From contig JAGCNK010000207.1 of NCBI GenBank assembly GCA_017645985.1, forward strand, positions 1-40,887: a stretch of DNA of 40,887 nucleotides, read 5' to 3'. Position numbers and translations under genes: made by a program. Of this stretch, positions 6,890 through 28,158 are shown in pieces. This DNA is from Bacteroidales bacterium. Lineage in GTDB: Bacteria > Bacteroidota > Bacteroidia > Bacteroidales > UBA3824. How positions within the stretch are numbered: position 1 is the first letter of the stretch; each line of letters begins with the position of its first letter. Below the pieces are notes generated by a model. The model had not been told where the DNA came from. It saw nothing but the letters and a program-made list of their open reading frames with translations, and searched no databases.

Positions 6890-6934
6890 GTAGACTGTTT
6901 AAAAATTCGGGTGCAAAATTAAATAAAAAAACTC

Positions 6935-7588: not shown

Positions 7589-9100
7589 ATGAAAAAACAC
7601 CTTCTTAGCGTAATGTCTGTTGCTGCGATGATGACGTTGTCGGCTTGCTTCGGCGGTGGCGACAATGGTGGCAGCAATGGTTCAGACAATGGATCTGACA
7701 ATGGTGGCGGACAAAACATGTCGTCTGCCGAAATCATCAAACGTGCCGACGGTTCAGTAATTCGTCTGGGCGGTTACAAGGCTTCCGCTCCCGACATCGA
7801 CGCTCCTATGTACAGCGCATCGCTCAAGGCCGACAATCTTCCCTCTAAGGTTGACTTGCGCCAATACCTCACTCCCGTAGAAAACCAAGGTCAGCTCGGT
7901 TCGTGTACTGCCAACGCCACAGCTGGTGCCTACGAGTATCTTATGTGGTGGCACAAACAAAGTCAGTTTGATTTGAGCCGTCTGTTTCTCTATTACAACA
8001 CCCGCGTTATCGAAAATACTGTAAACGTGGATAATGGAGCTATGATTTTTGATGTAATCAAAGCTTTGCACGACAATGGCGTTTGTAGCGAAAACTCTTG
8101 GCCCTACGTTATTCAGAAATTCAAACAGCGTCCGCCTGAGAACTGTTATGCTGAGGCTAAAGAACACAATATCAGCAAGTATGAACGCATAGCGTTGGAT
8201 CTCGACACTTGGAAAAGCGTTCTTGCAGAGGGCTATCCTATTATTTTTGGTGTTCAGATATTCAATTCGTTTCAGAATCCCCGCAACGGCTTCATCTCTA
8301 TGCCAAGATCCAATGATCAACCTTTAGGCGGTCACGCTATGTGCTGCGTAGGCTATTCTGATCCCGACCGCGTGTTTATCGTGCGCAACTCGTGGGGTCA
8401 CCAGTGGGGCGACAAAGGATACTGCTACATTCCCTACGACTATATGATGAACCGCAAATACAACGACGGCGACTCTTGGGTAATCTACAGCATGGACGGC
8501 GAAATCAATACCGACCAAATCGAGGAAGAGGCTTGGAACGACGACGAGGAGTCGATGTTTGTGGATATGGAAAACGAGTTTACCGATATGTCGGACGAGA
8601 ACTGGGACGCTATGTGTGAAGAACTTGGCGACTATGACATCGTGTTCCGCCTTGGTGCGCTCTACAATTATGCTTGTTGGGGTGACGAGGAGGCTGATCC
8701 CGCAGAAACTAAGGCTGCACTTGAGAAACTCAAAAAAATTCTCGTGATGTTCGGTCTCGACTACTCGCCCAAAAAGGTGCTCAAACACTGCGAGAACCTT
8801 TGGAGCAGCAAGGATAATTTCCTTGAAGAGACGGTAGAGATTCTCTCAAAATATCTGTCGGATGGTGCTCGTGCCACTATCGCAGCCGATATGCTCGAAA
8901 TTTGCGAAGCCGATGGCGATGCCGCAGAAAACGAACGCGTGTTGATTGCAGACCTTGTGACCGAATGGCTCAACGATGACCTCCTTGAGGAATACTACTC
9001 TGAGTATTTCGACGAGGAAGACGAAGACGACTACGACTATTACGAAGACGAAGACGACTATTACTATGATGAAGACTTCGACTATGGTGATGAATTGTAA
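7589..9100 (+). CDS. Lipoprotein papain-family (C1) cysteine peptidase fused to a TerB-like domain and a D/E/Y-rich tail
   Basis: Lipobox MTLSAC plus a G/N/S/D linker. The C1 triad contexts are QGQLGSCTANATAGAYEY, GGHAMCCVGY and VRNSWGHQWGDKGYCYIPYDY. The C-terminal helices carry WGDEEADPAETKAALEKLKKIL and ICEADGDAAENERVLIADLV (TerB-like ADG-x5-E pattern). The tail is EEYYSEYFDEEDEDDYDYYEDEDDYYYDEDFDYGDEL. Confidence 0.8.
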   Translation: MKKHLLSVMSVAAMMTLSACFGGGDNGGSNGSDNGSDNGGGQNMSSAEIIKRADGSVIRLGGYKASAPDIDAPMYSASLKADNLPSKVDLRQYLTPVENQGQLGSCTANATAGAYEYLMWWHKQSQFDLSRLFLYYNTRVIENTVNVDNGAMIFDVIKALHDNGVCSENSWPYVIQKFKQRPPENCYAEAKEHNISKYERIALDLDTWKSVLAEGYPIIFGVQIFNSFQNPRNGFISMPRSNDQPLGGHAMCCVGYSDPDRVFIVRNSWGHQWGDKGYCYIPYDYMMNRKYNDGDSWVIYSMDGEINTDQIEEEAWNDDEESMFVDMENEFTDMSDENWDAMCEELGDYDIVFRLGALYNYACWGDEEADPAETKAALEKLKKILVMFGLDYSPKKVLKHCENLWSSKDNFLEETVEILSKYLSDGARATIAADMLEICEADGDAAENERVLIADLVTEWLNDDLLEEYYSEYFDEEDEDDYDYYEDEDDYYYDEDFDYGDEL

Positions 9101-9127
9101 CAGTCTGTAATACAAACCATTAAAATG

Positions 9128-9161
9128 CCGTCTGTGATTTTTGTCGCAGACGGTTTTTTTT
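9128..9161 (+). terminator. Rho-independent terminator after the peptidase gene
   Basis: Stem CCGTCTG (9128-9134) pairs with CAGACGG (9147-9153), followed by T8. Confidence 0.75.
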
Positions 9162-10669: not shown

Positions 10670-10677
10670 GCAAAATT
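10670..10677 (-). promoter_or_regulatory. -7 box TAATTTTG for queA
   Basis: The reverse complement of caaaatta is TAATTTTG. It lies about 45 nt upstream of the queA ATG, immediately after the truB stop. Confidence 0.4.
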
Positions 10678-10682
10678 ACAAA

Positions 10683-11428: not shown

Positions 11429-11716
11429 TTAATGTGTGTATTTCTGTTTTGCACGTCGTAGGGCTCTACGGATCTTGTAAAAGTTTGGCGGCGGCACGGG
11501 GTCGTATCCGTGCGTGCCCCAGGGATTGCAGCGCAAGATGCGCCAGGTGGCAAGTATTGTGCCGCGTATTATACCGTGATACTCAACAGCTTGCATAGCG
11601 TAAACCGAACATGTGGGGGTGTGACGGCAGGCGTCGGGCAGCCACGGCGAAATGCAGGCGCGGTAAAACCGTACCGGCAGAAGGTAGATTTGTCTAATTA
11701 CAGCCGCAAGATTCAT
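11429..11716 (-). CDS. yidD: Membrane protein insertion efficiency factor YidD
   Basis: [50 protein letters not shown] is the canonical YidD signature. Confidence 0.85.
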
Positions 11717-12321: not shown

Positions 12322-12352
12322 CAAATGTAACCAAAATGCGGATATTTTCAAA
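12322..12352 (-). promoter_or_regulatory. Bacteroides-type promoter for tdk (-33 TTTG, 19-nt spacer, -7 TACATTTG)
   Basis: The minus strand reads TTTGaaaatatccgcattttggtTACATTTG. It ends about 28 nt upstream of the tdk ATG. Confidence 0.5.
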
Positions 12353-12368
12353 CACGGCGGCCAATAAT

Positions 12369-13055
12369 TTACTTGGCGTTTTTGGTGCGTGAAATTACAA
12401 ACTGGGCGAAGTTGATGTCGTCGAACGTGGTGATTTTGATGTTGTTTTTTTCGCCTTCGATAAGGTTGATGGTTTCGCCGTACTGCTCCACCACCGAGGC
12501 GTCGTCGGTAAACATCTGAGTGTAAGGCTGCTGGTATGCCTTGCGCAGAACGTCGGCGTGAAACACCTGAGGGGTCTGTATCAGTTTTACTGTGTTGCGG
12601 TCTATGATTTTGCTGCTGCCGTCGGCTGCCACGGTGCGTATCGATTCGGGCGGATTGATGCACGGCACGGCGTTGCCTTTGAGTGCCGCCTGGGTGTAGC
12701 ACTGCGCTATGCACGATACCGACACGAGAGGTCGCACTCCGTCGTGAACTCCCACAATGTCGACCTCGGGTCCGAGTGTGTCAACTGCGTTTTTTACCGA
12801 ATGAAACCGCTCTGCTCCGCCGTAGACATATCTGTAAGAGTCGGGACGGAGAAAAGGCTGCGAGAGTTTTCTCCAAAACTCACCGAGACCTTGCGGCAGC
12901 ACCAGTATCACCTCTATTTCGGGGTCGAAACTGCGAAACTGGTTTACAGTGCGGCACAGGATGGGCATGCCGTCGAGGTCAAGAAACTGTTTGGGCGTAC
13001 TCATACCCATGCGCAGGCCTTTGCCGCCTGCCACAATTATTACGGCGCGTTTCAT
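12369..13055 (-). CDS. ispD: 2-C-methyl-D-erythritol 4-phosphate cytidylyltransferase
   Basis: AVIIVAGGKGLRMGMSTPKQFL and VHDGVRP motifs. 228 aa. Confidence 0.9.
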   Translation of the reverse strand: MKRAVIIVAGGKGLRMGMSTPKQFLDLDGMPILCRTVNQFRSFDPEIEVILVLPQGLGEFWRKLSQPFLRPDSYRYVYGGAERFHSVKNAVDTLGPEVDIVGVHDGVRPLVSVSCIAQCYTQAALKGNAVPCINPPESIRTVAADGSSKIIDRNTVKLIQTPQVFHADVLRKAYQQPYTQMFTDDASVVEQYGETINLIEGEKNNIKITTFDDINFAQFVISRTKNAK

Positions 13056-13915
13056 CAGGCTGCGGGTGTGATGTTGTCAGATATGTACTGCGCCACGCGC
13101 TTGTTGATTTTTTCGGAGAGCAGCGCCATGTTGAAGTTCTTCTTCTCAAATGTGGCTAACTCTACAAGCGCCACGGTCTGCTTGCCGTAAACGAGCGGTA
13201 TAAATATAAGGTGTCGTGGCGAACCCTGACCAAGTCCTGAAACTACCACTTGGATGTAGTTTTCGGGAATGTTGTCGAGTTCGAGGGTCTTCTTGTCCTT
13301 GGCTACCTGACCGTTGATGCCTTCGCCGATTTCGAATGTGCGGTCGGTGTCGGGCGTGTAGTATGCGTAGGTGCTTTTGATTTCGTACTTTCCGATTTTG
13401 GGATTGAGCGCGTAAGCCACACCCTGCACAATGTCGAACACTTTGGCAAAGTTGCTGAGCAGCTTGTCGAAATATTCGTTGAGGTCGGCAGTCTGTTCCA
13501 GGTCGGCGGCAATCTGGTTTGCCACCTGGTCGAGGTGCTTGTTTTCCTCCGCCTCGCGTTTGGCTTTCTGCTGTTTCTCCTGGCGGGCCTTCTCCTGCTT
13601 TATTTCCTCGTTGTTGTCGTCGGCATCGCTGCGTGCGTTGGCTAGGTCGTCGGAGTTTACTCTGTCGGTAGAGCCTTTTACAGAGAGGAAGTCGAGCTGC
13701 GACTCGGTAACGCTTGCCTGGTGGAATATTTTCTTGGCGTAGGCAGTAGTGGCGGCTGCCCATATAGCCGAAACCGCCGCAAATCCCAGGAGTATGTTTT
13801 TATAGTACTCTTGAAGTTGCGGTATCAAGGCGGCTGTAATCACCGCTACGCACACCACAATCCATATTGTGAGCGCAGTAGCTATATTTTTTTTGGCCTT
13901 GTCGAATTTTTTCAT
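13055..13915 (-). CDS. Two-TM protein with an E/Q/K-rich coiled-coil linker and a C-terminal GAF-like domain
   Basis: The TM helices are IATALTIWIVVCVAVITAALI and ILLGFAAVSAIWAAATTAYA. The linker is EEIKQEKARQEKQQKAKREAEENKHLDQVANQIAADLEQTADL. The C-terminus (FAKVFDIVQGVAYAL...GEGINGQVAKDKKTLELDNIP...IFIPLVYGKQTVALVELATF) has a GAF-like pattern. Its stop overlaps the ispD start (TGATG). Confidence 0.65.
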   Translation of the reverse strand: MKKFDKAKKNIATALTIWIVVCVAVITAALIPQLQEYYKNILLGFAAVSAIWAAATTAYAKKIFHQASVTESQLDFLSVKGSTDRVNSDDLANARSDADDNNEEIKQEKARQEKQQKAKREAEENKHLDQVANQIAADLEQTADLNEYFDKLLSNFAKVFDIVQGVAYALNPKIGKYEIKSTYAYYTPDTDRTFEIGEGINGQVAKDKKTLELDNIPENYIQVVVSGLGQGSPRHLIFIPLVYGKQTVALVELATFEKKNFNMALLSEKINKRVAQYISDNITPAA

Positions 13916-13925
13916 GGTATGATCG

Positions 13926-14480
13926 TCATTTAAGGTTTTTCAAAAAGTCAATTATCTCGTTTGTTACCATTATGTGGTCTACTTCGGTGGCTTTGATGGC
14001 AGCCGTGGTCATTGTCTTTACCTGGCATTCGTCGGGCGACTGCACTATCACCGTGCCTCCGGCGTCTTTGATGGCCTTGAGCCCGAGGGCGCCGTCCTTG
14101 TTGGCTCCTGAGAGCAGTATTCCCACCGAGTCGGTTTTGAAGGTTTTGGCTATCGAAAAGAATGTTACGTCGATCGACGGCCGCGAATGGTTTACAGGTT
14201 CTTCTGTTGATAGCGAAAACTGGTTGTTGGCGTCAACGTACATGTGATAGTTGGCTGGAGCGAGGTAAGCTATGCCCGGCATCACGGTGTCTTTGTCGAA
14301 AGGCTCGCAAATCGGTATGTTTGATTTAAGCGATAGTGCCTCCACAAATCCGCCCCTGACGTTTTTGAGACGGTGCAGGCATAGGAAAATAGTGTGAGGG
14401 TAGTTGCGCGGTATGCTCGATAGCAACGCCGTCACCGTTTGAAAGCTTCCTGCCGATCCTCCTATTACAATGTTGCCCAT
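13926..14480 (-). CDS. cheB: CheB-type protein-glutamate methylesterase, catalytic domain only (no receiver domain)
   Basis: 184 aa starting directly with MGNIVIGGSAGS. The Ser, His and Asp contexts are GGSAGS, FLCLHR and LSGANKDGALG, plus NHSRPSIDV. Confidence 0.8.
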   Translation of the reverse strand: MGNIVIGGSAGSFQTVTALLSSIPRNYPHTIFLCLHRLKNVRGGFVEALSLKSNIPICEPFDKDTVMPGIAYLAPANYHMYVDANNQFSLSTEEPVNHSRPSIDVTFFSIAKTFKTDSVGILLSGANKDGALGLKAIKDAGGTVIVQSPDECQVKTMTTAAIKATEVDHIMVTNEIIDFLKNLK

Positions 14481-14487
14481 AACCTTT

Positions 14488-15321
14488 TTACTTTTGAACT
14501 TTTACAAAAATGTTTTCGTTTTTCGACACCGGGATAAATGTTCCACGGTAGTCGCATCCGCTGAGATTCTCGCGTATGCCTATTATGAAGTATCCGCCGC
14601 TGACGATGGTCTTGGCAAGGTTGTCAACCACCATTTTCTTGGTCTGGACGTTCATGTATAGCATACGGTCGCGAAACAGCACAAGGTTGAATCCGTTGTC
14701 GGGCGGAGGAGTGCTGATGATGTCGCCTTTGAGGAATATGACGTTGTCGAGCAGCTGCGACGAAAAATAGTCGTATTTGTCTTCTCGGGTGAGATAGTGA
14801 GTCAGTTCGGCGTCCGGGTCTATTTTTTTGAAGTTTGCCGAGCTGATTTCTAATTTCTTCTGGTCGATGAATCCGCTTTTGGCGTCGTTGAGTATCTTGT
14901 GGATGGGCGATGTGGCGTATACAGTGCACCGGTTGAGGATGCGTTTGCGGTGGAGAATCACCAGCAGCGAGTAGAGCTCGTCGTCGCCGCATATCTGGGG
15001 AATCCATATTTTGCAGAGCGTCTCGTTTTTGAGTTTCTCCACAATGTTGTCTTCCAGAAACTTCCACATAGAGTAGTCGCGAAACATCTCGGTTGTAGGC
15101 ACGAATATTTCCGACACGAACAGGTCGGCAAAGTAGTTGTCGGCCATAAGCTTGTTTACGAGGCGGTCGGGAGTCTGCACGCCGTGCATATACATCGACC
15201 TTGTCATACGGTGCATAAGGATGTCTTGCGAGTAGTACGAGAAGTCTACGTCGCGGAGCGTGCGCACTGTCGAAATGATTTTTCTGAAATCCTCGTGTGG
15301 TATGTTAAGAAATTCGTCCAT
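14488..15321 (-). CDS. CheR-like protein with a degenerate SAM-binding motif
   Basis: It has the CheR fold landmarks (TTEMFRD and the N-terminal helical domain). However, motif I reads IWIPQICGDDELYS instead of W-x-AGCSTGEE-x-YS, ATD is replaced by ATSP, and the post-motif reads VLFRDRMLYMN. Confidence 0.7.
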   Translation of the reverse strand: MDEFLNIPHEDFRKIISTVRTLRDVDFSYYSQDILMHRMTRSMYMHGVQTPDRLVNKLMADNYFADLFVSEIFVPTTEMFRDYSMWKFLEDNIVEKLKNETLCKIWIPQICGDDELYSLLVILHRKRILNRCTVYATSPIHKILNDAKSGFIDQKKLEISSANFKKIDPDAELTHYLTREDKYDYFSSQLLDNVIFLKGDIISTPPPDNGFNLVLFRDRMLYMNVQTKKMVVDNLAKTIVSGGYFIIGIRENLSGCDYRGTFIPVSKNENIFVKVQK

Positions 15322-15324
15322 AGC

Positions 15325-16185
15325 CTAAAACACTTTTTTGTTGTAAATCAGACCTTTCTTTTCGTACTTTACGCTCGTTGGGCCGATGATGCTCTCATGT
15401 ATTCCCAGCACGAGCGATCCGTATGTGTCGAGGTAATTCCAAAAATCAATAAACAGCTTGTTTTGCAGTGTGTTGTTGAAGTAAATCAGTACATTGCGGC
15501 ACAAAATGATGTCGTACGACACGTTGAAAGGGTTGGGGTCGGTAACGAGGTCGTGCTTTTTGAAAATTGCCTTGTCGAGAAATTCGCGCTTTATTTTAAA
15601 GGTGTCTTTCACCTTGTTGATGTCGAAATATTTCTCGTATGTTACCACAAGATGCTCGTCGAAGTTGTAAGGATTTTCGCACAGCACCTTGTTGAAGTTG
15701 TCGAGATATTCAGACACCGACCTGTAGCTGTATACGCCCGACTGGGCGGTTTTGATTACGTCGGTGTTGAGGTCGGTGGCGTAGATGTTGCAACGGTGAA
15801 GCATGTTCATCTCGTTGAGCAGTATTATCATAGAGTACACCTCCTGACCTGTGGAGCATCCTGCGTGCCAGATGTTGATTTCGCGCTTGCTTGCAAGGCG
15901 TGGCAGTATGCGGTATTTGATTGCGTGCCATACCTGAGGGTCGCGAAACAGCTCGGTGGTGTTTACAGTGATGTCTCTGACCACCTGCTCCAAAAACAGA
16001 CGGTCTTCTTTAACTTTGGCTATCAGCTTCGACAGGTCAAGTTTGTAGTCCATCATCACCTTTTCCACCCGCCTTAGAAACGATTTTTCGGAGTAGTTGG
16101 CAAAATCGTATCCAGCGTAGTCGCGCAAGGTTCTAATAAGTGTCAGTATGTTAGGGTCTTCAAACATTTTTCTATAAGTATACAT
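15325..16185 (-). CDS. cheR: CheR-type protein-glutamate O-methyltransferase
   Basis: TTELFRD, INIWHAGCSTGQEVYS, IYATDLN and IILCRNVLIYF motifs. I prefer the ATG at 16185 (MYTYRKMFEDPN) to the TTG at 16206. Confidence 0.85.
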   Translation of the reverse strand: MYTYRKMFEDPNILTLIRTLRDYAGYDFANYSEKSFLRRVEKVMMDYKLDLSKLIAKVKEDRLFLEQVVRDITVNTTELFRDPQVWHAIKYRILPRLASKREINIWHAGCSTGQEVYSMIILLNEMNMLHRCNIYATDLNTDVIKTAQSGVYSYRSVSEYLDNFNKVLCENPYNFDEHLVVTYEKYFDINKVKDTFKIKREFLDKAIFKKHDLVTDPNPFNVSYDIILCRNVLIYFNNTLQNKLFIDFWNYLDTYGSLVLGIHESIIGPTSVKYEKKGLIYNKKVF

Positions 16186-16220: not shown

Positions 16221-16228
16221 CAAATATA
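16221..16228 (-). promoter_or_regulatory. -7 box TATATTTG upstream of the cheR operon
   Basis: The reverse complement of caaatata is TATATTTG. It lies about 36 nt upstream of the ATG at 16185. Confidence 0.4.
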
Positions 16229-16287: not shown

Positions 16288-17325
16288 TTAATAGACGTCG
16301 CGTTCGTAGCCGAGCATGGGCGGAACCATCTGGGTTCTGTTGCCGCTTACGCCGATGGCTTTTAGAGCGGGCAGGTTTTGCAGCAACTCGGGAAATTGAG
16401 CGAAAAGATTGTTGCAGAGGTTGAGGTCGTAAAGGTTCTCAAATTTTACCACTTCGTTGGGCAGACGTGTGAGCCTGTTGTTGCTCAGGTCAAGGAACAC
16501 AAGGCTTGTGAGCTTGGTGATGTCGGTGGGCACGGTTGTGAGGCTGTTGTGGCTGAGTATCAGACGCTGAAGGTTGTACAATTGCGATATTCTTGTGGGA
16601 ACCGACATCAAGCCGCATCCCGAGAGCGACAATCTGGTGAGTGTGGTGATGTTGCATATCTGCGTCATGTCGCGTATCTTGTTGTTGTCTAAGTATAACA
16701 CTTTGAGCGACTTGAAGTTGGCTACCGTGGTGGGCAGCGATGCTATTGTGTTGCCGGCAAGCATCAGCACCTCAAGGTCTTTGAGGTTGGTGAGTGCGCC
16801 CTGGAATGCTGTTATCTTGTTGAACGAGAGGTCTAACTCTTTGAGCGACTTCATATTAGAAATCGTTGCGGGGATGACTGTAATCAGGTTGTTTGACAAT
16901 GTGGCAGATTCGAGCTGCGTGCAGTTGGTTAGCTGCGCCATTTCGCTTATGCGGTTGTTGGCTAAGGAGATGCGTTTCAATTTTTTGAGTCCTGCCACCT
17001 CGCCAGGTATGCGTGCTATGGCGTTCTGGTCGGCAAAGATGAACCTCAGTTCGGTAAGCTGAAACAACTGAGGCGGCAATGTGGTGAGCGTGTTGCCCTG
17101 TATGTATATGGCTTTGAGGTTTTTGAGCTGGGCTATGTCGGCGGGCAGCGACGATATGCCCTGGTTGCTCAGGTCGAGCACCTCGGCTTTGTCGGCGTTA
17201 GAGAGCGCCTCTTCTACCGATGTGTATGCTATCTGTTTGGCAAGCCACTGGTCGTTGTAGTCCTGCGCGTATGTGGCGGCAACGGCTGTGAGCGTTATTG
17301 CGAGCGATAAGATAAGTCTTTTCAT
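16288..17325 (-). CDS. Secreted leucine-rich repeat (LRR) protein
   Basis: Signal peptide MKRLILSLAITLTAVAATYAQ, then about a dozen roughly 23-residue LxxLxLxxNxLxxLP repeats (for example LKELDLSFNKITAFQGALTNLKDLEVLMLAGNTIASLP). Confidence 0.8.
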   Translation of the reverse strand: MKRLILSLAITLTAVAATYAQDYNDQWLAKQIAYTSVEEALSNADKAEVLDLSNQGISSLPADIAQLKNLKAIYIQGNTLTTLPPQLFQLTELRFIFADQNAIARIPGEVAGLKKLKRISLANNRISEMAQLTNCTQLESATLSNNLITVIPATISNMKSLKELDLSFNKITAFQGALTNLKDLEVLMLAGNTIASLPTTVANFKSLKVLYLDNNKIRDMTQICNITTLTRLSLSGCGLMSVPTRISQLYNLQRLILSHNSLTTVPTDITKLTSLVFLDLSNNRLTRLPNEVVKFENLYDLNLCNNLFAQFPELLQNLPALKAIGVSGNRTQMVPPMLGYERDVY

Positions 17326-17326
17326 T

Positions 17327-18109
17327 TTAATTGTCATTTTCTGAATTAAACATATTATTAACAAAACAAATATAATGCCTATATTTTGAGCGGCTGTGCT
17401 TTTTGGCGCAGTCGGAGGCGTTTTTGATTCCTCCGAGATAATAACGTTGAAACCACGGCAAAACGCATAAAATTGCAGTCCAATTGCCGTAATTTTTTGC
17501 CAAATATACTCCGAGCATTGCCAGCGACCCCAGAATCACCTCCGACGACACGCCGTCTATCACACTCAGCGACATATACTGCCCAAGTCCAGGCACTATG
17601 GCGCTTGCCACGCCTGCCACCGCCGGCGACGGTTTCGACTTCTTTTGCCATTTTTTCGACAGTTTCAAAAACTCGTCGCGGCGTTCTTCTGGCAGTGATT
17701 TTAGAAAGCATTCAGTTGATTTGTCGTACTGACCGAGACAGTAGTAGCAGATGCCCAGACGTCGGTTCACTTCGTTTTGGATGCTGGGTTCGGCGGCGGT
17801 GTCTGCTTGCATAAGCGAAGCCACGGCGTTGAAGTATTTTTTTGCTGCGATATAGATATCGGCTTTTGTAATAAGAACTTTACTACGCTCGTCCTGGGTG
17901 GCGGCGTAGAGGTATGCCTGATTGATGAACATCTCGGCAAGACGGAGGTTTTCTGCCTCGGACGATAGCTGTGCGGCGGCTATATAGTTCTGGTTGCTGG
18001 TGTGCAATGTGTCGAACAGTATGGCACGCTGCAACTCTTTGAACTGGTTTTGTGCGCTAACCGTTAGGCTAAAAAAGATTATCGTGCATATAGTCCACAA
18101 TTTGTTCAT
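17327..18109 (-). CDS. Signal peptide plus TPR-like helical region plus C-terminal DUF5683-like membrane segment
   Basis: Signal peptide MNKLWTICTIIFFSLTVSAQ. TPR-like helices such as LGICYYCLGQYDKSTECFLKSL. SAIVPGLGQY is followed by hydrophobic helices. It has the same architecture as the upstream gene. Confidence 0.55.
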   Translation of the reverse strand: MNKLWTICTIIFFSLTVSAQNQFKELQRAILFDTLHTSNQNYIAAAQLSSEAENLRLAEMFINQAYLYAATQDERSKVLITKADIYIAAKKYFNAVASLMQADTAAEPSIQNEVNRRLGICYYCLGQYDKSTECFLKSLPEERRDEFLKLSKKWQKKSKPSPAVAGVASAIVPGLGQYMSLSVIDGVSSEVILGSLAMLGVYLAKNYGNWTAILCVLPWFQRYYLGGIKNASDCAKKHSRSKYRHYICFVNNMFNSENDN

Positions 18110-18869
18110 CGTGCTTTTTCTTTATTGTGTTGTTGTATTTGTTTACCGACTTGGCTGTGCCGAATATGTTGCCCACATAAAAGCAAGCCGACAATGACGC
18201 AAAAAATAGCGGATAAGGGTCTTTGTAACCATATTTGTGAAATCCGTACGCCACGTGTGCCAGTTCAAAACCGCTCCGCAGCAGAGCCATGATGCCTTCG
18301 CGAACGTAGCCGCAGTAGATACGTCCCGAGCCTGGCAATACCGCCGACATTGAAACGGCTATCAGCATAGATTTTTGGTCTAATTTCTTTTGACAGAATG
18401 ATTTGACTTCGGGTGTCAGCAGCGGATTGTTGATGTCGGCGGGTGTCTGGTTGATAACCGCCAGGCAGTTTTTTATGTTTGTGCCTTTGATGGTGTATGG
18501 CGATTGCAGCGAGTCGCAAAACGTGTATGCCTTGGCGTATTCACCCGAGTTTATCAGTAGTTTTACATAGTGGAAATAATATCCAGGTTGAGTTTGGCAT
18601 TGCGGCAGAATGTATTTTTCAAAGGTCTTTTCGGCATTTTTGTAGTCATAGATAATTGAATAACAGTCTATTGTTTTGAATGCGTAATCTAAACTATTGC
18701 TGCAAGTGCTGTCGGCAAGGCGTGCATACTCCTCGGCGGCAAACTGGTATTGCTGTGTGTTGTACAGATATTCGGCAAAAATTCTGGTGTGCGTGGTGTC
18801 GTAGAGGTTTTGCGCTGCGCACATCTGCGCCGTGAGGCATAATAATATTGCTATGGCGGCGTGTTTCAT
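18069..18869 (-). CDS. Signal peptide plus TPR-like helical region plus C-terminal DUF5683-like membrane segment (paralog)
   Basis: Signal peptide MKHAAIAILLCLTAQMCAAQ. Helical repeats (FAAEEYARLADS, YKNAEKTFEKYI, GEYAKAYTFCDSL). SAVLPGSGRIYCGYVREGIMALL is followed by a second hydrophobic helix. Confidence 0.55.
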   Translation of the reverse strand: MKHAAIAILLCLTAQMCAAQNLYDTTHTRIFAEYLYNTQQYQFAAEEYARLADSTCSNSLDYAFKTIDCYSIIYDYKNAEKTFEKYILPQCQTQPGYYFHYVKLLINSGEYAKAYTFCDSLQSPYTIKGTNIKNCLAVINQTPADINNPLLTPEVKSFCQKKLDQKSMLIAVSMSAVLPGSGRIYCGYVREGIMALLRSGFELAHVAYGFHKYGYKDPYPLFFASLSACFYVGNIFGTAKSVNKYNNTIKKKHDEQIVDYMHDNLF

Positions 18870-19828
18870 TGCTTTCTTTTCAATGGATAGTCGATTAGCA
18901 GTCCGTCGTTGCCTTGAAGGTAGCCCGGCTTGTTGATTCCGCTGCAGCGAAGCAGTCGGTCAAACGTGTCGGCAAAGCCGTAGAAGAATCCGTTTTGACT
19001 GAAAGTCATCTGGCTGTAATGCGAGCAGGAAGGGTAAAAACTACATCTCTGTATGTCCTGGGGCGATATTACACGTCGGTAAAATGCGAACAGCGGGTTG
19101 AGGCTTGTTTCTTCGTATTCTTCGCATTTTTGAGGTGCGGTGCTGATGGGTGTTACGCATTGTAACTGAGCGGTATCACCGTCTACAACTACGTTGGTGT
19201 AGATGGTTTTGGTGTATATTTCGCCGTTGCCGCTTGCCACCGACACTATCTGTGTGGGAAAATCTATTCCGTCAACGTTGATGTAGTTGTAGTAGAATGT
19301 CCTTACCATCGGGCTGCCTTTGCGGTTGAGCATCACTGCTGCGCTGAGGCGGTTGTCGGCTTGTGAAATGATGATTTTGCATACCAGTCCCGACGATGTG
19401 TCTGCGTAGTTTTCGGGAAGTGAATATTCGGTAAGCACTGCTCCGTTGCGCCAGGAAACGTCGGTAATGTGGTAGTTAAAATCTTCTGCGCCGCCGTTGC
19501 CTATTGTTCCCATTATGGCCTGATATGGCAGCGATGATTTCAGTAGCGACGAGTCAACACTGATTTCGGCTTGCTTGTGGTTGTTTTGCCATTGGGCCAT
19601 TTTGTCGAAGGTGAGTTCCACAGTGTAGACCGCTGGGTAGATGTAGCTTGTGGTGAGGGTGTTGTTTCGGCTGTTGAATGATACACGGCCTTTGGCTACG
19701 TGGTTGATGGTGGCTCCGTCGGTGGTTTCTTCGGTAAAGTCGGCTGAAAGCGAATAGTGCAGTTGTGCAAACGCAGATCCTCCGGCGGCAAGTAAGACTG
19801 TAAGCGCGATTATTTTACCGACAGCCAT
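18866..19828 (-). CDS. Exported beta-rich protein with a C-terminal YidD-like domain
   Basis: Signal peptide MAVGKIIALTVLLAAGGSAFAQ and a beta-rich region of about 230 aa. The C-terminus FAFYRRVISPQDIQRCSFYPSCSHYSQMTFSQNGFFYGFADTFDRLLRCS matches the YidD signature (Y-x2-ISP, C-x-F-x-P-[ST]-CS-x-Y, R-x-x-RC). Confidence 0.7.
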   Translation of the reverse strand: MAVGKIIALTVLLAAGGSAFAQLHYSLSADFTEETTDGATINHVAKGRVSFNSRNNTLTTSYIYPAVYTVELTFDKMAQWQNNHKQAEISVDSSLLKSSLPYQAIMGTIGNGGAEDFNYHITDVSWRNGAVLTEYSLPENYADTSSGLVCKIIISQADNRLSAAVMLNRKGSPMVRTFYYNYINVDGIDFPTQIVSVASGNGEIYTKTIYTNVVVDGDTAQLQCVTPISTAPQKCEEYEETSLNPLFAFYRRVISPQDIQRCSFYPSCSHYSQMTFSQNGFFYGFADTFDRLLRCSGINKPGYLQGNDGLLIDYPLKRKQ

Positions 19829-20238
19829 TTGGCGAGTCCTCCCACAGCCGCGCCCGTGAGGCAGCCGTAAATAGCCAGTTTCACCTCGCGCCTGTCGCCG
19901 TGCTTGCAGGCGTAAACAATTGCCACAGCTATGGGACCCGCGCCCGCTCCGTAGAGCGTGTATGTGCCTACTGCCGATACCAAGGCTGTGAACACAAAGG
20001 TGGGCATACGTCCCGGCATTGCGCTTTGCGGATAAAGATTCACCATAGCGAAATTGTTAAACTCCGCTGTGTTGCAGCCGTTATTTGAAGCGATGGTTTC
20101 AATCTCGCAGGCTATGCTGTCGGCGGTGGCAAATTTTTCGGTAAGTCCGCTGTCAGAAAACCAGTCGGGGTCGGTGCCGTCGGCATAAACCACCGATGCC
20201 ACAAAGATTAACGATAATATGGCTGCTAACTTTTTCAT
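19810..20238 (-). CDS. Small signal-peptide protein with a glycine-zipper membrane C-terminus
   Basis: I prefer the start at 20238 (MKKLAAILSLIFVASVVYADG). The C-terminal segments FVFTALVSAVGTYTLYGAGAGPIAVAIVYA and LAIYGCLTGAAVGGLAKWL are Gly/Ala-rich. The track's 61-aa N-terminal extension overlaps the upstream gene and looks spurious. Confidence 0.5.
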   Translation of the reverse strand: MKKLAAILSLIFVASVVYADGTDPDWFSDSGLTEKFATADSIACEIETIASNNGCNTAEFNNFAMVNLYPQSAMPGRMPTFVFTALVSAVGTYTLYGAGAGPIAVAIVYACKHGDRREVKLAIYGCLTGAAVGGLAKWLSVK

Positions 20239-20239
20239 T

Positions 20240-20734
20240 CTATTTTGATTGTGAAATGCGCTCGCGGTTGGCGTTGATATACTTGTTGAGTGTGCGTTCA
20301 AGCAGTTCGATGTCTTCTGCCGACAAGGCGGTGATGTTAAACGAAGGATAGGTGAACTCTTGCAGCTGCTTTTCCTTGTTGTATCCGCGCACTGTGATGG
20401 ATATCTTTTTCTGCAGACCAAAAAAGCTCTTGGTGATGGTGTATTTGTGCAGCAGTTTTTTCTTGATGTTGAACGACAGGCAGCGGCGAAACAGCGGATA
20501 TGCCGTGTAGCGTTTTACTACTATCGGGTCTTTGTCGTCGTCGAAACTGAAATACGAGGGATTGATCAACAGCAGTACAATGTGAGCCACCACCATCACT
20601 CCGCAGATAATCAGGCAGGTTTTCATATTGTACTTGTCGAAATAGATATATGCCAATGAACCAATCGCCAGCAGTCCCGAAATGATATATGCCAGGCGAT
20701 ATTTTGATGTAGTTAAATTATTGTCTATAAACAT
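20240..20734 (-). CDS. Two-TM membrane protein with a small C-terminal soluble domain
   Basis: The TM helices are YRLAYIISGLLAIGSLAYIYF and CLIICGVMVVAHIVLLLI. A strand-rich domain of about 95 aa ends in a helix (SAEDIELLERTLNKYI); a bacterial PH-like fold is only a guess. Confidence 0.5.
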   Translation of the reverse strand: MFIDNNLTTSKYRLAYIISGLLAIGSLAYIYFDKYNMKTCLIICGVMVVAHIVLLLINPSYFSFDDDKDPIVVKRYTAYPLFRRCLSFNIKKKLLHKYTITKSFFGLQKKISITVRGYNKEKQLQEFTYPSFNITALSAEDIELLERTLNKYINANRERISQSK

Positions 20735-20761: not shown

Positions 20762-21817
20762 TTAAAGATTCATCTGGTTGTAAAACGAGAACGACTGGCA
20801 GATGTCCTCGTAGGTGCAATGCACGTCGTATTGGTATTTGCCAAAACCGCTTACGAGCGAGAACGATATTTTGCCTTCGGTGTTTTTCTTGTCGTGGTGC
20901 ATCAGTTCTATGAGCGTTTTGTAGATGTCCATACTGAAGCGGAACGGTTGGAAATACAGTCCTATAATCTTTGCCACTTCTATGAGGCTTTGAATAGGAA
21001 ATCCCATATAGTGGTTGCTCAGATATAGCTCGCAAACTATGCCCACAGCCACAGCCTCGCCGTGCAGAAGTGGTTTGTCGGTGTTGAACGAGAAGCTCTC
21101 CACAGCGTGTCCGATTGTGTGACCGAAGTTGAGCATTTTTCTCACGCCTTTTTCGGTGGGGTCGGCTGATGTGAACTCGTTCTTTATCATTATCGAGGTC
21201 TCCACAAGCTCGGTGAGCAGATTCCAGTCGGGCTGCTTGGGGTTGAACTGGCTGATGCGCTCAAAATAGTCCTTGTCGACCAGCAGTGCGTGTTTTATCA
21301 TTTCGGCAAAGCCGGAAATAATCTGCGCCGTGGGCAGCGATTTCAAAAACTGTGTGTCAACGATTATCTTGTCGGGATTGCGGAAAATTCCAATCTCGTT
21401 TTTAAAGTTCTGAAAATCAACAGCTAACTTGCCTCCGCACGAAGCGTCCACCTGAGCCAGCAGGGTAGTGGGAACGTTTACGAACTTGATGCCGCGTTTA
21501 AACAGCGACGCCGCCAATCCGCCCATATCGCCGATAACACCGCCGCCAAGGTTGATAAACAGACTCTTGCGGTCGGCACCGAGATTGCTCAGCTTCGACC
21601 ATATAATACTCAGTGTGTCAAGGTTTTTGTGCTGTTCGCCGCTCTTGATTTCTATCACTGTGGCGCCGTTTTGGCTGATGCAGGGTAGGAGAGGGAGGCA
21701 GTGCCGGGAGGTGTTCTCGTCAACAAGTACAAACACTTTTGACGAAACGCTTTTGATTATTTCCGACAATACTGCGTCGGCGTTTTGCGTACATACTACG
21801 TTTTCAGGCAGATTCAT
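20762..21817 (-). CDS. aroB: 3-dehydroquinate synthase
   Basis: GGGVIGDMGG, LNFGHTIGHAVE and HGEAVAVG motifs. 351 aa. Confidence 0.9.
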   Translation of the reverse strand: MNLPENVVCTQNADAVLSEIIKSVSSKVFVLVDENTSRHCLPLLPCISQNGATVIEIKSGEQHKNLDTLSIIWSKLSNLGADRKSLFINLGGGVIGDMGGLAASLFKRGIKFVNVPTTLLAQVDASCGGKLAVDFQNFKNEIGIFRNPDKIIVDTQFLKSLPTAQIISGFAEMIKHALLVDKDYFERISQFNPKQPDWNLLTELVETSIMIKNEFTSADPTEKGVRKMLNFGHTIGHAVESFSFNTDKPLLHGEAVAVGIVCELYLSNHYMGFPIQSLIEVAKIIGLYFQPFRFSMDIYKTLIELMHHDKKNTEGKISFSLVSGFGKYQYDVHCTYEDICQSFSFYNQMNL

Positions 21818-21845: not shown

Positions 21846-21853
21846 CAAAATTA
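21846..21853 (-). promoter_or_regulatory. -7 box TAATTTTG upstream of aroB
   Basis: The reverse complement of caaaatta is TAATTTTG. It lies about 29 nt upstream of the aroB ATG. Confidence 0.4.
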
Positions 21854-23431: not shown

Positions 23432-23497
23432 AAAAACAAAAAGGAAGTTTTTCCGTATAAAGATTTGGATGATAACAACCACGGTATAAATATCGAT

Positions 23498-23743
23498 ATG
23501 AAAAAGTCAAAATACATAAAATTCGCACTCTGCTTGGCGCTGGGCTGTTTCTTCAGCCTTGGTGTGTTTGCTGAAGATTACAATGGTGTCGGTGACGACC
23601 CAAACAAGGATGTGCCAAAAATTCCGATTCCAATTGATGGTGGAGTGTCTGTTTTGATAGCCGCAGGTGTTGGCTACGGTGTAAAAAAGTACCGTGACTA
23701 TCGTTTAAGTAAGAAGGATATCGAACCTCGTTGTTCTGAATAG
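23498..23743 (+). CDS. 81-aa precursor with an N-terminal signal peptide and a PID-type C-terminal sorting signal
   Basis: The signal peptide is MKKSKYIKFALCLALGCFFSLGVFA. About 20 polar residues follow (EDYNGVGDDPNKDVPKIPIP). Then come IDGG, the hydrophobic stretch VSVLIAAGVGYGV and the basic stretch KKYRDYRLSKK. This is the tripartite layout of PEP-CTERM-class signals. I prefer the ATG at 23498 to the TTG at 23465. Confidence 0.55.
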   Translation: MKKSKYIKFALCLALGCFFSLGVFAEDYNGVGDDPNKDVPKIPIPIDGGVSVLIAAGVGYGVKKYRDYRLSKKDIEPRCSE

Positions 23744-23757
23744 GATAAAACCCTTTT

Positions 23758-24323
23758 ATGTCTTCAAAGTTTTATTGTAGTTGGTCTCCTTTGGGTAAGG
23801 CAGCTTTCAATATTGCTGTTGCGGGCTTGGTAGGTTTTGTTTTCTTCTTCTTCCTAAAAAAAATTACTTCTTCTTCAATCTTTACGAATATGGCGTCTAT
23901 TGCCTTACTGAGCTGATAGCCAATTCGGTAAAGTTTGTCCTTAATTTATTCGGCTTCAAATGCCTGACATTTGGCAAGATTATTTCCAACACCGACGGAG
24001 TGTCGCTTATTTTAGACCGCGGATGCGTTGGACGTAATGTGCTTGTGGTGTTTGCGGCTTTTATCATTGCCACTCCTGCCGAGGTTTGGCGAAAGTTTGC
24101 CTATATTGCCGCCGGACTTGCCGTTATCGTTTTGCTCAATGTGCTGCGTATTTCGTTGCTGATGTATGTGGGCACCTATCACAACGAGTGGTTTCACTTT
24201 GCCCACGAATATCTGTTTAAATACACGCTCTACGCTGGAGTGTTTTTGCTGTGGGTGCTGTGGATGAACAAGTTCAGGTCTTCATCTTCTTTTTCTTCGC
24301 CGCAGGAAAAAGCACATTGTTGA
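23758..24323 (+). pseudogene. Small exosortase-family protein (XrtF-sized), reading frame interrupted at an A8 tract
   Basis: The ATG at 23758 opens MSSKFYCSWSPLGKAAFNIAVAGLVGFVFFFFLKK..., which stops at 23914-23916. The -1 frame is open from 23799 and reads NYFFFNLYEYGVYCLTELIANSVKFVLNLFGFKCLTFGKIISNTDGVSLILDRGCVGRNVLVVF...LLNVLRISLL...FHFAHEYLFKY...WVLWMNKF through to 24323. The conserved Cys, Arg and His spacing and the joined length of about 188 aa fit small exosortases. That frame has no start codon between 23799 and the GTG at 24000. Confidence 0.6.
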
Positions 24324-25530
24324 GTATCAGACGGTAGCCTGGCGAGTTTGGATGCAGGTCGAGGTCGGTGGGAGGATCGCCCACATAGTGCAGATAATCT
24401 TCGGGGTCGTGTCCGCCGTACCAGGTCCAAGTGCCTTTGCCGTATTCGCCGTGTATGTAGCGTGCTTCGTTGGCGGCTTTGTTTTCGCCCATAATCAGAA
24501 CTGAACTTTTCAGCACTTCCTTGCGGTACGATGTGGTCTGTCCCATAAATCCGTCGATAATGTTCTCATGGTTCTGACATAGCATAGTGGGCACAGGATC
24601 CCACTTGGCAGAAAATTCAAACAGTGAGAATATGTCGTTCTCTTTTTGCACGCGCCGTGTGGTGGTGGCGTCTATGTCGCTGTATTCGTACACGTTGGGG
24701 TTGAGCTCAAGACGAAAATCTTTGAATGCGAATGTGGCGCTGTAGTCGAGCTTGGCTTGGCAGTTGGGGTCTATCGGGTCGCCGTCGAACATTGGCTGGC
24801 AGATGTCGGTGTTTTCGGCGGCGAGGGCAATGTCGAAACTGTCGGTGGCACTGCACATTGCAAACATGAATCCGCCGTTTTCTACAAACTGCTTTATGGT
24901 TTTGGCTACTGCGAGTTTAAGCTTCGACACTTTGCTGTAGCCCATCTTCTGAGCCAGCGCGTTGAACTCGATCACCTGGTTTTTATACCACGGAACATTT
25001 TTGTACGATGCGTAGAATTTGCCGAACTGACCAGTGAAATCCTCGTGGTGAACGTGCAGCCAGTCGTATTTCGACAGTTCGCCTGTGAGAATCTCCTCGT
25101 CGTAAACCACCGTGTAGGGTATTTCGGCGTAGGTGAGCACAAGCATCACGGCATCGTCCCACGGCTTGTAGGTCTTGGGGGCGTATACTGCTATTTTGGG
25201 AGCTTTCTCAAGTTTGATATGCTCCATGTTAACATCGTTGCGCGAAATCTGAGCCAGAATGTTGTCGGCTGCGGCGTCGGGGATCTGCTGGAAACTTACG
25301 TTGCGCACCCTGCATATCGTGGCTATCTGGTCGGTGTAGTCGGTGAGAAAACTGCCTCCACGGTAGTTGAGCAGCCATTCTGCCGTTAATCCCGCCTCCA
25401 ATATGGTGTAGGTAACGCCGTATGCTTTGAGATGGTTGGTTTGTGTCTCGTCCATCGGGATGAGGATTTTCATCGCCTGACACTTCGCCACCGAAATCAA
25501 CGCTAACAATATGGCTGCTATCAGTTTCAT
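24274..25530 (-). CDS. Conserved secreted hypothetical protein (possibly a class I glutamine-amidotransferase-like fold)
   Basis: Signal peptide MKLIAAILLALISVAKCQA. The nucleophile-elbow-like GGFMFAMCSATDSF and the C-terminal WYGGHDPEDY are the only suggestive motifs. The start is 6 nt after the dnaB stop. Confidence 0.5.
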   Translation of the reverse strand: MKLIAAILLALISVAKCQAMKILIPMDETQTNHLKAYGVTYTILEAGLTAEWLLNYRGGSFLTDYTDQIATICRVRNVSFQQIPDAAADNILAQISRNDVNMEHIKLEKAPKIAVYAPKTYKPWDDAVMLVLTYAEIPYTVVYDEEILTGELSKYDWLHVHHEDFTGQFGKFYASYKNVPWYKNQVIEFNALAQKMGYSKVSKLKLAVAKTIKQFVENGGFMFAMCSATDSFDIALAAENTDICQPMFDGDPIDPNCQAKLDYSATFAFKDFRLELNPNVYEYSDIDATTTRRVQKENDIFSLFEFSAKWDPVPTMLCQNHENIIDGFMGQTTSYRKEVLKSSVLIMGENKAANEARYIHGEYGKGTWTWYGGHDPEDYLHYVGDPPTDLDLHPNSPGYRLILNNVLFPAAKKKKMKT

Positions 25531-28150: not shown

Positions 28151-28158
28151 CAAAATTA
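28151..28158 (-). promoter_or_regulatory. -7 box TAATTTTG upstream of accA
   Basis: The reverse complement of caaaatta is TAATTTTG. It lies about 40 nt upstream of the accA ATG. Confidence 0.4.

Follow-up and report, generated by a model that had tools for sequence, protein, structure and literature searches.

The 40,887-nt stretch of Bacteroidales contig JAGCNK010000207.1 analyzed here (the window) contains, downstream of aroB, six consecutive minus-strand open reading frames (ORFs), g1 to g6 (16288-20734), that an earlier reading of the sequence alone had put forward as an envelope operon of unknown function. These six packed genes proved to be genuine and conserved, and they are parts of a larger, modular system made up of a g1-g2 hub, a g3-g5 module and a module encoding a leucine-rich-repeat (LRR) protein (g6), two CheR-type proteins, CheB and a GAF protein. 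The original prediction treated the six genes as one unit ending at 16288, which leaves out four conserved partner genes at 13055-16185; from sequence comparison, the six would form the membrane and periplasmic half of a 10- to 12-gene system of uncultured rumen and gut Bacteroidales. The interpretation that we favor, held tentatively and at somewhat less than even confidence, is a modular, lineage-restricted, multi-subunit envelope sensor that is tuned by methylation.

Homologs of g3 fell into 15 clusters, all from uncultured Bacteroidales. Loci L001-L011 share the entire metK-to-queA region with the window and are therefore no evidence of functional linkage; for synteny, only loci in different genomic contexts were counted. 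Since the g3 loci were uninformative, the anchor was moved to g2, which gave 81 homolog clusters and 14 GTDB species-representative loci, and metagenome contigs were scanned with the GAF protein as anchor. Gene families were then mapped across the loci with hidden Markov models built from the window and these loci, and all source genomes of the relatives are uncultured metagenome-assembled genomes (MAGs). Type I loci (window, L001-11, L016-20, L030, L032-33) have the order aroB-g1-g2-g3(fused)-g4-g5-LRR-CheR1-CheR2-CheB-GAF-ispD. Type II loci (L014/15, L022-25, L038, L041/42, L045) read aroB-g1-g2-LRR-CheR1-CheR2-CheB-GAF-ispD, without g3-g5, and L040 follows this order but additionally lacks g2. 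In type III (L021 continued by L035), an unrelated stretch of about 7 kb (greA, HIT, bacA and others) separates g1-g2-LolA-like-YidD(split)-g4-g5-LRR from CheR1-CheR2-CheB-GAF downstream. Type IV (L012/13, L068/69; L026/27 truncated) consists of g1-small outer-membrane barrel-g2-LolA-like-YidD-g4-g5 beside bamA/ompH/murI or tig/clpP/clpX, with no LRR or CheR gene nearby and no aroB, and type V (L029, L070) has the type IV set, one unrelated gene, and then LRR-CheR1-CheR2-CheB-GAF.

The order g1-(barrel)-g2-LolA-like-YidD-g4-g5 thus recurs at 25-33% identity in L012, L029 and L070 (bamA/ompH/murI) and in L068 (tig/clpP/clpX), and synteny, on which the original prediction had been made to depend, holds even where every flanking gene differs (L012, L068, L029, L070, L021). 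In the window lineage the genes of the full set lie side by side, as they do in L029 and L070 within another genomic context, which links g1-g5 to the CheR, CheB and GAF genes. The hub, g1 and g2, is found with either or both of the two modules; g1 orthologs are present in every architecture type except in L028, and g2 is the hallmark of the system. The LRR gene tracks the CheR block: it is kept with the block where g3-g5 are absent (L014, L015, L022-25, L038-45) and is missing beside g5 where the block is missing (L012, L068). The linkage to aroB is present in the window as claimed and is limited to types I and II; aroB was rejected as a member of the system: L021 carries it on the other strand, and the loci L012, L029, L068 and L070 lack it.

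The separability of the modules could also mean that two independent systems are neighbors by descent, g1-g5 being an envelope complex and LRR-CheR-CheR-CheB-GAF a separate signaling unit. The CheR block does occur without g3-g5, g1-g5 occur without an adjacent CheR block, the 7-kb insertion of L021/L035 parts the two, and conserved promoter-like boxes precede the LRR and CheR1 genes (see below). However, g1-g2 accompany either module, the order of all 11-12 genes is unchanged between two unrelated contexts whose proteins share 25-35% identity, and, apart from L035, the GAF-anchored loci with enough upstream flank have g1 and the LRR gene upstream, and g2 as well except in L040. We regard two unconnected neighbors as quite unlikely.

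The gene junctions that had been claimed were all recovered: a 1-nt spacer between g1 and g2, a 19-nt overlap of g2 and g3, a 4-nt ATGA overlap of g3 and g4, a 41-nt overlap of g4 and g5, and a 1-nt spacer between g5 and g6. The gap of 27 nt from the aroB stop to g1 was likewise as described, and a scan of the minus strand gave no terminator-like site there. The 19-, 4- and 41-nt overlaps were seen again in relatives whose g3 is just 45-50% identical. Each of g1 to g6 is under purifying selection (dN/dS 0.04-0.15 at dS of about 0.8-1.2, compared with L006). The possibility that unrelated small genes or spurious ORFs are packed by chance downstream of aroB has only the lack of annotation in its favor (g1, g2 and g4 have no Pfam family); it is contradicted by the conserved overlap lengths and by the confident structure models of g1 and the g3 N-domain, and was ruled out by the dN/dS values together with same-order orthologs at 25-35% identity in unrelated contexts, leaving it with practically no weight.

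The hub protein g1 has membrane helices at residues 14-32 and 39-57 with basic flanks. Helix prediction and an AlphaFold2 (AF2) model (predicted local distance difference test score, pLDDT, 84) agreed with the two-helix protein with a small soluble domain that had been proposed, the latter being a 6-7-strand beta-sandwich capped by a long C-terminal helix. The best Foldseek matches were PH/PTB domains and were weak (E 0.05-0.1, prob 0.9-0.97, TM 0.35-0.45). This arrangement of two N-terminal helices, a small beta-sandwich and a C-terminal helix cap may resemble that of membrane-anchored bPH proteins of the YdbS/YdbT type, from which g1 differs in having no Pfam bPH match and in the structural E-values just given. 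The protein may thus be an inner-membrane protein with a cytoplasmic PH-like domain, a weak assignment for the domain and a predicted one for the topology.

The second hub protein, g2, has a signal peptide, a variable and predicted periplasmic segment, and the glycine-rich C-terminus that had been pointed out, which takes the form of a two-helix hairpin. The hairpin is almost invariant among relatives (PGRMPTF...YGAGAGPIAVAIVY...GCLTGAAVGG). The family is rare, with 316 representatives among 1.84 billion representative proteins at E<=1e-3; no Pfam family was matched by the 48 family members searched, and no PDB match was obtained. Sequence-profile searches of g1, g2 and g3 against the PDB returned noise only. 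A SlyB/Pcp-type glycine-zipper lipoprotein was considered for g2 and dropped, with Gly-zipper_Omp found in 1 of the 48 members at E 0.42 and no lipobox (the signal peptide ends VYA-DG, without Cys). A bacteriocin or toxin was rejected because g2 is always paired with g1; there is also no leader-cleavage motif, transporter or immunity-type partner.

In g3, a signal peptide that has Gln at +1 leads into an open half-barrel of the LolA superfamily, helical plug included (about residues 23-216), and residues 246-303 form a YidD-like domain. The claimed beta-rich domain and YidD-like end were therefore both present, and the beta-rich part can now be assigned to a fold. In the AF2 model the N-domain has a pLDDT of 80-90; the YidD part is below 50 and was left uninterpreted. 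Foldseek against the PDB gave 3buu (LolA superfamily) as the top match of the N-domain (E 1.8e-10), with 9tp6 (LolA3), several LolA entries, LolB and RseB among the lower ones (E up to 1e-5; prob 1.0 and about 190-215 columns throughout). An export signal peptide is a further likeness to LolA and RseB. The differences from LolA, LolB and RseB lie in the identity of 7-15%, in the lack of any Pfam or NCBIfam LolA/LolB model match at E<=0.1, with nothing relevant from the PDB profile search, and in the fusion to, or position beside, an exported YidD-like domain. Unlike LolA and LolB, the cluster has TPR membrane proteins and CheR/CheB, and no LolCDE or LolB is encoded in the window or any locus.

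The YidD domain of g3 passed the cutoffs of both family models (PF01809, 59.2 bits versus 27; TIGR00278, 56.9 bits versus 40). Its three Cys residues (C21, C27, C54) are invariant with respect to the canonical YidD of the window and relatives, and the P-[ST]-C-S-x-Y core is kept; in place of the canonical C-terminal RCNPWG-GYDPVP motif the cluster copy has an RCNG/RCNR-type sequence. Canonical YidD is a small stand-alone membrane protein insertion efficiency factor that works at the cytoplasmic face with YidC. Each genome carries a canonical YidD plus the cluster paralog, the housekeeping copy of the window lying between tdk and truB and having no signal peptide. The cluster copy differs in that it stands behind a signal peptide or the exported LolA-like domain, and for this reason it is predicted to be an exported, periplasmic paralog; no yidC or rnpA is near it. 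In distant lineages the two parts of g3 are encoded separately, by a LolA-like gene (226-233 aa) and a YidD-like gene that both specify a signal peptide (L012, L021, L029).

The g4 and g5 proteins are paralogous (hhalign 98.7%, E 2e-16, 238 columns), as had been proposed, and share the membrane motif PGxG(R/Q)xY. The former has a signal peptide with Gln at +1, a helical, TPR-like and predicted periplasmic domain, a membrane segment (PGSGRIY) with some three hydrophobic helices and, at the C-terminus, a basic tail. The latter has a signal peptide, TPR-like repeats, a DUF5683-like membrane segment (PGLGQY) and a basic tail. The TPR and DUF5683 parts of the proposal recurred across orthologs at scores that were mostly below threshold. 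For g5 of the window, DUF5683 (PF18935) gave 16.2 bits versus a gathering cutoff of 26.7 and aligned at profile positions 2-25 only. Sub-threshold matches to this family were found in 7/8 g5 and 3/8 g4 orthologs (best E 2.9e-6), at the start of the profile in both C-terminal segments, along with weak matches to TM2. TPR_2 reached 26.1 bits versus a cutoff of 27 in g5, with matches in 7/8 orthologs, and the TPR matches of g4 are scattered and weak. Both proteins differ from DUF5683 and TM2 proteins of the PGxGQ kind also in the added N-terminal signal peptide and TPR-like domain.

The description of g6 as a secreted protein with about a dozen LRRs was accurate: a signal peptide is followed by 12-13 repeats of 23 residues (LxxLxLxxN; Pfam LRR_4 134 bits, LRR_8 128 bits). 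A signal peptide followed by Gln is the Bacteroidetes pattern for signal-peptidase-I substrates, and Gln stands directly after the predicted cleavage site in g3-g6. Every LRR ortholog examined, including those of L014, L015, L021 and L029, ends in Tyr (DVY, IAY, IVY, CMY, NIY), and the C-terminal Tyr of g6 (window 16288-16310) may be part of a docking motif.

The main rival of the sensor is an envelope biogenesis or trafficking machine, in which a lipid or lipoprotein would cross the periplasm bound to the LolA-fold domain and the exported YidD-like domain would aid its insertion into a membrane, with g4/g5 as TPR scaffolds, g1/g2 as inner-membrane anchors, a small outer-membrane barrel as acceptor, and the CheR/CheB/GAF proteins as a co-located regulator or a separate system. 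This agrees with the LolA-superfamily fold of g3, which also matched LolA and LolB, with its YidD family membership, and with the occurrence of g1-g5 in L012 and L068, where no CheR block adjoins them. A barrel-like gene of 187-192 aa stands between g1 and g2 in distant lineages (L012, L026-29, L068, L070), and three of the barrel-gene loci adjoin bamA/ompH. Its product resembles a small outer-membrane barrel, with a signal peptide, an alternating beta-strand pattern and a C-terminal aromatic end (...NIYF). The barrel is missing from the window lineage, however; neither an ATPase or other source of energy nor any component of the LolCDE, Mla or Lpt type is present, and the system is too rare for a general biogenesis pathway. 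Moreover, many lineages (type II) keep g1-g2 with LRR, CheR, CheB and GAF alone, without LolA, YidD or TPR genes, and this is the reason that signaling is favored for the hub. A trafficking machine is accordingly judged unlikely, and of the assembly, insertion or signaling roles first suggested, signaling is the better supported.

The cluster might instead be a divergent member of a characterized Bacteroidota envelope system (Bat, Tol-Pal, Lol, the type IX secretion system (T9SS), Sus or a Bam accessory). The statement that it could not be mapped to Bat, Lol, Tol, T9SS or Sus held in profile, structure and literature searches. An NCBIfam search of g1-g6 gave faint, meaningless matches to SecD, CmpA (12.9 bits versus a cutoff of 300) and PorE (11.4 bits versus 600). 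Neither g1, g2, g4 and g5 nor the g3 N-domain has an above-threshold Pfam, NCBIfam or PDB-sequence match, and no paper was found that links these parts; searches on CheR plus CheB with GAF in Bacteroidales, DUF5683, YidD plus LolA, and insertion by YidD plus YidC returned nothing relevant. The fold-level likeness of the g3 N-domain to Porphyromonas gingivalis LolA3 (PDB 9tp6) amounts to 8-9% identity, and LolA3 is a stand-alone LolA paralog with a separate, unknown role (PMC13103446). A disguised known system is thus very improbable.

The four genes that follow g6 encode three chemotaxis-type methylation proteins and a GAF protein. CheR1 may begin with the ATG at 16167, and would then match relatives in length (280 aa). 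It contains the whole CheR N-domain and S-adenosylmethionine (SAM) domain, and alignment to 5ftw showed intact SAM-binding motifs (AGCSTGQEVYS, ATD, CRNVLIYF). In the divergent paralog CheR2 the corresponding motifs are degenerate (CGDDELYS, ATS, FRDRMLYMN versus CSTGEEPY, ATD, CRNVxIYF), and the identical changes occur in L014 and L029. CheR2 is constrained (dN/dS 0.055) and adjoins CheR1 wherever the CheR1-CheB stretch is intact, the more distant L053 having CheR1-CheB directly; it is probably a conserved, non-catalytic pseudo-enzyme partner. CheB consists of the methylesterase/deamidase domain only, without a receiver domain. Its GGSAGS, LHR and NKDG motifs align with GASTGG, QHM and GNDG (1chd, 3sft), so that the positions of the Ser-His-Asp triad of CheB are kept. 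The CheR-CheR-CheB block always closes with the gene of a protein (TM-GAF) that starts with two membrane helices, continues as a charged coiled coil rich in K, E and Q, and ends in a GAF domain. In the window, ispD, tdk, yidD, truB and queA come after this block.

In its intact CheR1 motifs and CheB triad the block is like the chemosensory CheR/CheB pairs. It differs in the receiver-less CheB, in the second, degenerate CheR, in the partners (the TM-GAF protein and an envelope complex), and in the lack of a methyl-accepting chemotaxis protein (MCP), CheA, CheW or CheY in the window or any locus. More distant TM-GAF relatives are found where CheR-CheB genes lie beside HAMP-GAF, GAF-PAS-SpoIIE phosphatase and CHASE3-GAF-histidine kinase proteins, which places CheR/CheB beside non-MCP sensors elsewhere. 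The block resembles these neighborhoods and differs from them in that the GAF protein has no enzymatic output domain and that the block goes together with g1, g2 and LRR, and in some lineages also with g3-g5. We know of no established function for such non-chemotaxis CheBR-GAF/PAS/HAMP neighborhoods.

Transcription was considered with the Bacteroidetes -7 motif TAnnTTTG as promoter marker. The sigma-70 consensus does not apply to Bacteroidota, and a sigma-70 scan was set aside for that reason. TAnnTTTG is enriched in the window (49 matches versus 29 +/- 5 expected) and lies 20-60 nt ahead of many start codons; in this genome it serves to mark promoters. The box that had been reported upstream of aroB was found, though not as the only obvious promoter, since boxes also precede g6 and CheR1. 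The latter two are conserved in position in 5/5 checked type I relatives. That of the LRR gene is kept 41-50 nt upstream in L001, L004, L006, L010 and L019 and at 54 nt in L015, and that of CheR1 at 55-58 nt in 5/5 checked relatives with the window gene order. In the checked loci where aroB precedes g1 no TAnnTTTG box stands before g1; in L021, where g1 has no aroB ahead, a box is found at -29 of g1. The aroB box therefore probably drives aroB and g1-g5 in the window lineage, and the box positions predict three transcription units: aroB-g1...g5 (with read-through into g6 possible), g6, and CheR1...GAF(-ispD).

Gene content, folds and domains, paralogy, the co-occurrence of the modules, purifying selection and the promoter-like boxes are observed; for the envelope sensor that we favor, topology, physical complex, ligand, methylation substrate and output are inferred. 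The hub would consist of g1 and g2, both small proteins of the inner membrane, the first with two helices and a cytoplasmic PH-like domain, the second with an exported N-terminus and the glycine-rich hairpin; g4 and g5 would be membrane subunits too. In the periplasm, one input would be g3, whose LolA-fold domain with its hydrophobic cavity and exported YidD-like domain would be kept at the membrane by the TPR/DUF5683-like paralogs g4 and g5; the other would be the LRR protein g6. The cytoplasmic partners of the hub would be the membrane-anchored coiled-coil-GAF protein, an active CheR, a degenerate CheR and the receiver-less CheB. The LolA-like cavity may bind a hydrophobic molecule of the envelope (a lipid or the acyl chains of a lipoprotein), and/or the LRRs may bind a protein ligand; this may alter the membrane complex, the PH-like and GAF cytoplasmic domains may read out the change, and glutamate methylation and demethylation may set the gain. 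A precedent for a LolA-fold input is RseB, a LolA-fold envelope-stress sensor.

Several observations weigh against such a sensor. No MCP, CheA or CheW is encoded in the 40.9-kb window or within <=10 kb in any related locus, and the methylation substrate is therefore not given by the gene content; nor is there an output domain (kinase, cyclase, DNA-binding) within the cluster. The g3-g5 module can do without the LRR/CheR block, at least locally, given L012 and L068, where no such block adjoins g1-g5, and about 7 kb of unrelated genes part LRR from CheR1 in L021/L035. The PH-like assignment of g1 is weak (structural E of about 0.05), and the YidD part of the g3 model is of low confidence. A LolA fold with a YidD-like domain and an outer-membrane barrel would also fit a transport or insertion role, and all the evidence is comparative and comes from MAGs. 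It is conceivable, though rather unlikely, that the proteins form a trans-envelope apparatus of a new kind, in which the exported YidD acts in the periplasm with the LolA-fold lipid or lipoprotein binder, the TPR-membrane paralogs and the g1/g2 hub, and in which the state of the apparatus is coupled to cytoplasmic glutamate methylation by CheR/CheB on a non-MCP substrate. The methylated substrate would then be the coiled-coil-GAF protein or the hub itself, and adaptation of the chemotaxis type would have been turned to envelope surveillance or biogenesis in bacteria whose locus has no CheA pathway.

Table 1. Coordinates of the genes, boxes and other features in the window and in related loci.
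Feature	Sequence	Position	Strand	Remarks
aroB	window	20762-21817	minus	Pfam DHQ_synthase
g1	window	20240-20734	minus	164 aa; ORF listing
g2	window	19810-20238	minus	142 aa; ORF listing
g3	window	18866-19828	minus	320 aa; ORF listing
g4	window	18069-18869	minus	266 aa; ORF listing
g5	window	17327-18109	minus	260 aa; ORF listing
g6	window	16288-17325	minus	345 aa; ORF listing
CheR1	window	15325-16185	minus	CheR-type methyltransferase; Pfam CheR 133 bits
CheR2	window	14488-15321	minus	divergent CheR paralog; Pfam CheR 71 bits
CheB	window	13926-14480	minus	184 aa; Pfam CheB_methylest 161 bits
TM-GAF	window	13055-13915	minus	286 aa; two transmembrane helices, coiled coil, GAF
-7 box TAATTTTG	window	21846-21853	minus	29 nt before aroB ATG
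promoter-like box TATATTTG	window	17367-17374	minus	42 nt before g6 ATG, inside 3' end of g5
promoter-like box TATATTTG	window	16221-16228	minus	in 81-120-nt gap before CheR1
further box, tdk	window	12322-12329
further box, queA	window	10671-10678
further box, panC	window	6914-6921
further box, accA	window	28151-28158
housekeeping yidD	window	11429-11716	minus	95 aa
C1 cysteine peptidase	window	7589-9100	plus	papain family
hairpin	window	9127-9154		12-bp stem + T8
PIPIDGG protein	window	23465-23743	plus	small protein
exosortase (EpsH)-like ORF	window	24000-24323	plus	107 aa
signal-peptide protein	window	24274-25530	minus	418 aa
barrel-like gene	L012	9383-9952
barrel-like gene	L026	852-1415
barrel-like gene	L027	9126-9692
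barrel-like gene	L028	9290-9868
barrel-like gene	L029	9425-9988
hexapeptide/SiaC/DUF6272 trio	L012	6336-8519	minus
hexapeptide/SiaC/DUF6272 trio	L029	6200-8542	minus
hexapeptide/SiaC/DUF6272 trio	L068	6051-8278	minus
hexapeptide/SiaC/DUF6272 trio	L070	5444-7497	minus
TPR + SpoIIE gene	L014	6078-8243	minus	721 aa

Other genes were noted around the cluster. Distant lineages carry, divergent from g1, genes for a hexapeptide transferase, a SiaC-family phosphoprotein and a DUF6272 protein; this trio stays with the cluster in two contexts (the murI side and the clpX side) and is absent from the window, and it could provide a partner-switch output for the system. In L014 (type II), a TPR plus SpoIIE (PP2C phosphatase) protein is encoded divergently from aroB-g1-g2-LRR-CheR; the gene is not at that position in L015. 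Elsewhere in the window, the C1 peptidase gene is followed by a hairpin that is the sole strong intrinsic-terminator-like site of the scanned region. Upstream of an exosortase-like ORF lies the gene of a small protein that has a signal peptide and, at its C-terminus, a PIPIDGG motif, a membrane helix and a basic tail; its orthologs in relatives match Pfam PID_CTERM. The exosortase-like ORF is shorter than in relatives (180-186 aa), for which a frameshift, a truncation or a start missing from the ORF listing could account. This gene pair adjoins metK in every close relative long enough to cover the region. In the same relatives, the 418-aa signal-peptide protein, which has no Pfam family and adjoins dnaB, keeps its position.

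Each domain described here belongs to or resembles a known family; it is the combination that is undescribed, namely an exported YidD paralog with a LolA fold, and a CheR/CheR'/CheB/GAF block without an MCP at the locus. It is a rare system, limited to lineages without cultured members, and what is said of its function is deduced throughout. As a kind of system, it would represent CheR/CheB-modulated transmembrane sensing with a multi-subunit receptor other than an MCP. If this is true, CheR/CheB methylation has a non-MCP receptor, which would bear on the unexplained CheR-CheB genes beside GAF, PAS and HAMP sensors in many non-chemotactic bacteria. The mechanism of YidD is poorly understood, and an exported paralog that acts outside the cytoplasm, paired with a LolA fold, would offer a new handle on the role of the YidD fold. 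The cluster would also define a conserved, modular envelope system of uncultured rumen and gut Bacteroidales, which are abundant, and g2 and the degenerate CheR2, as its clear hallmarks, offer a means of following it through metagenomes.

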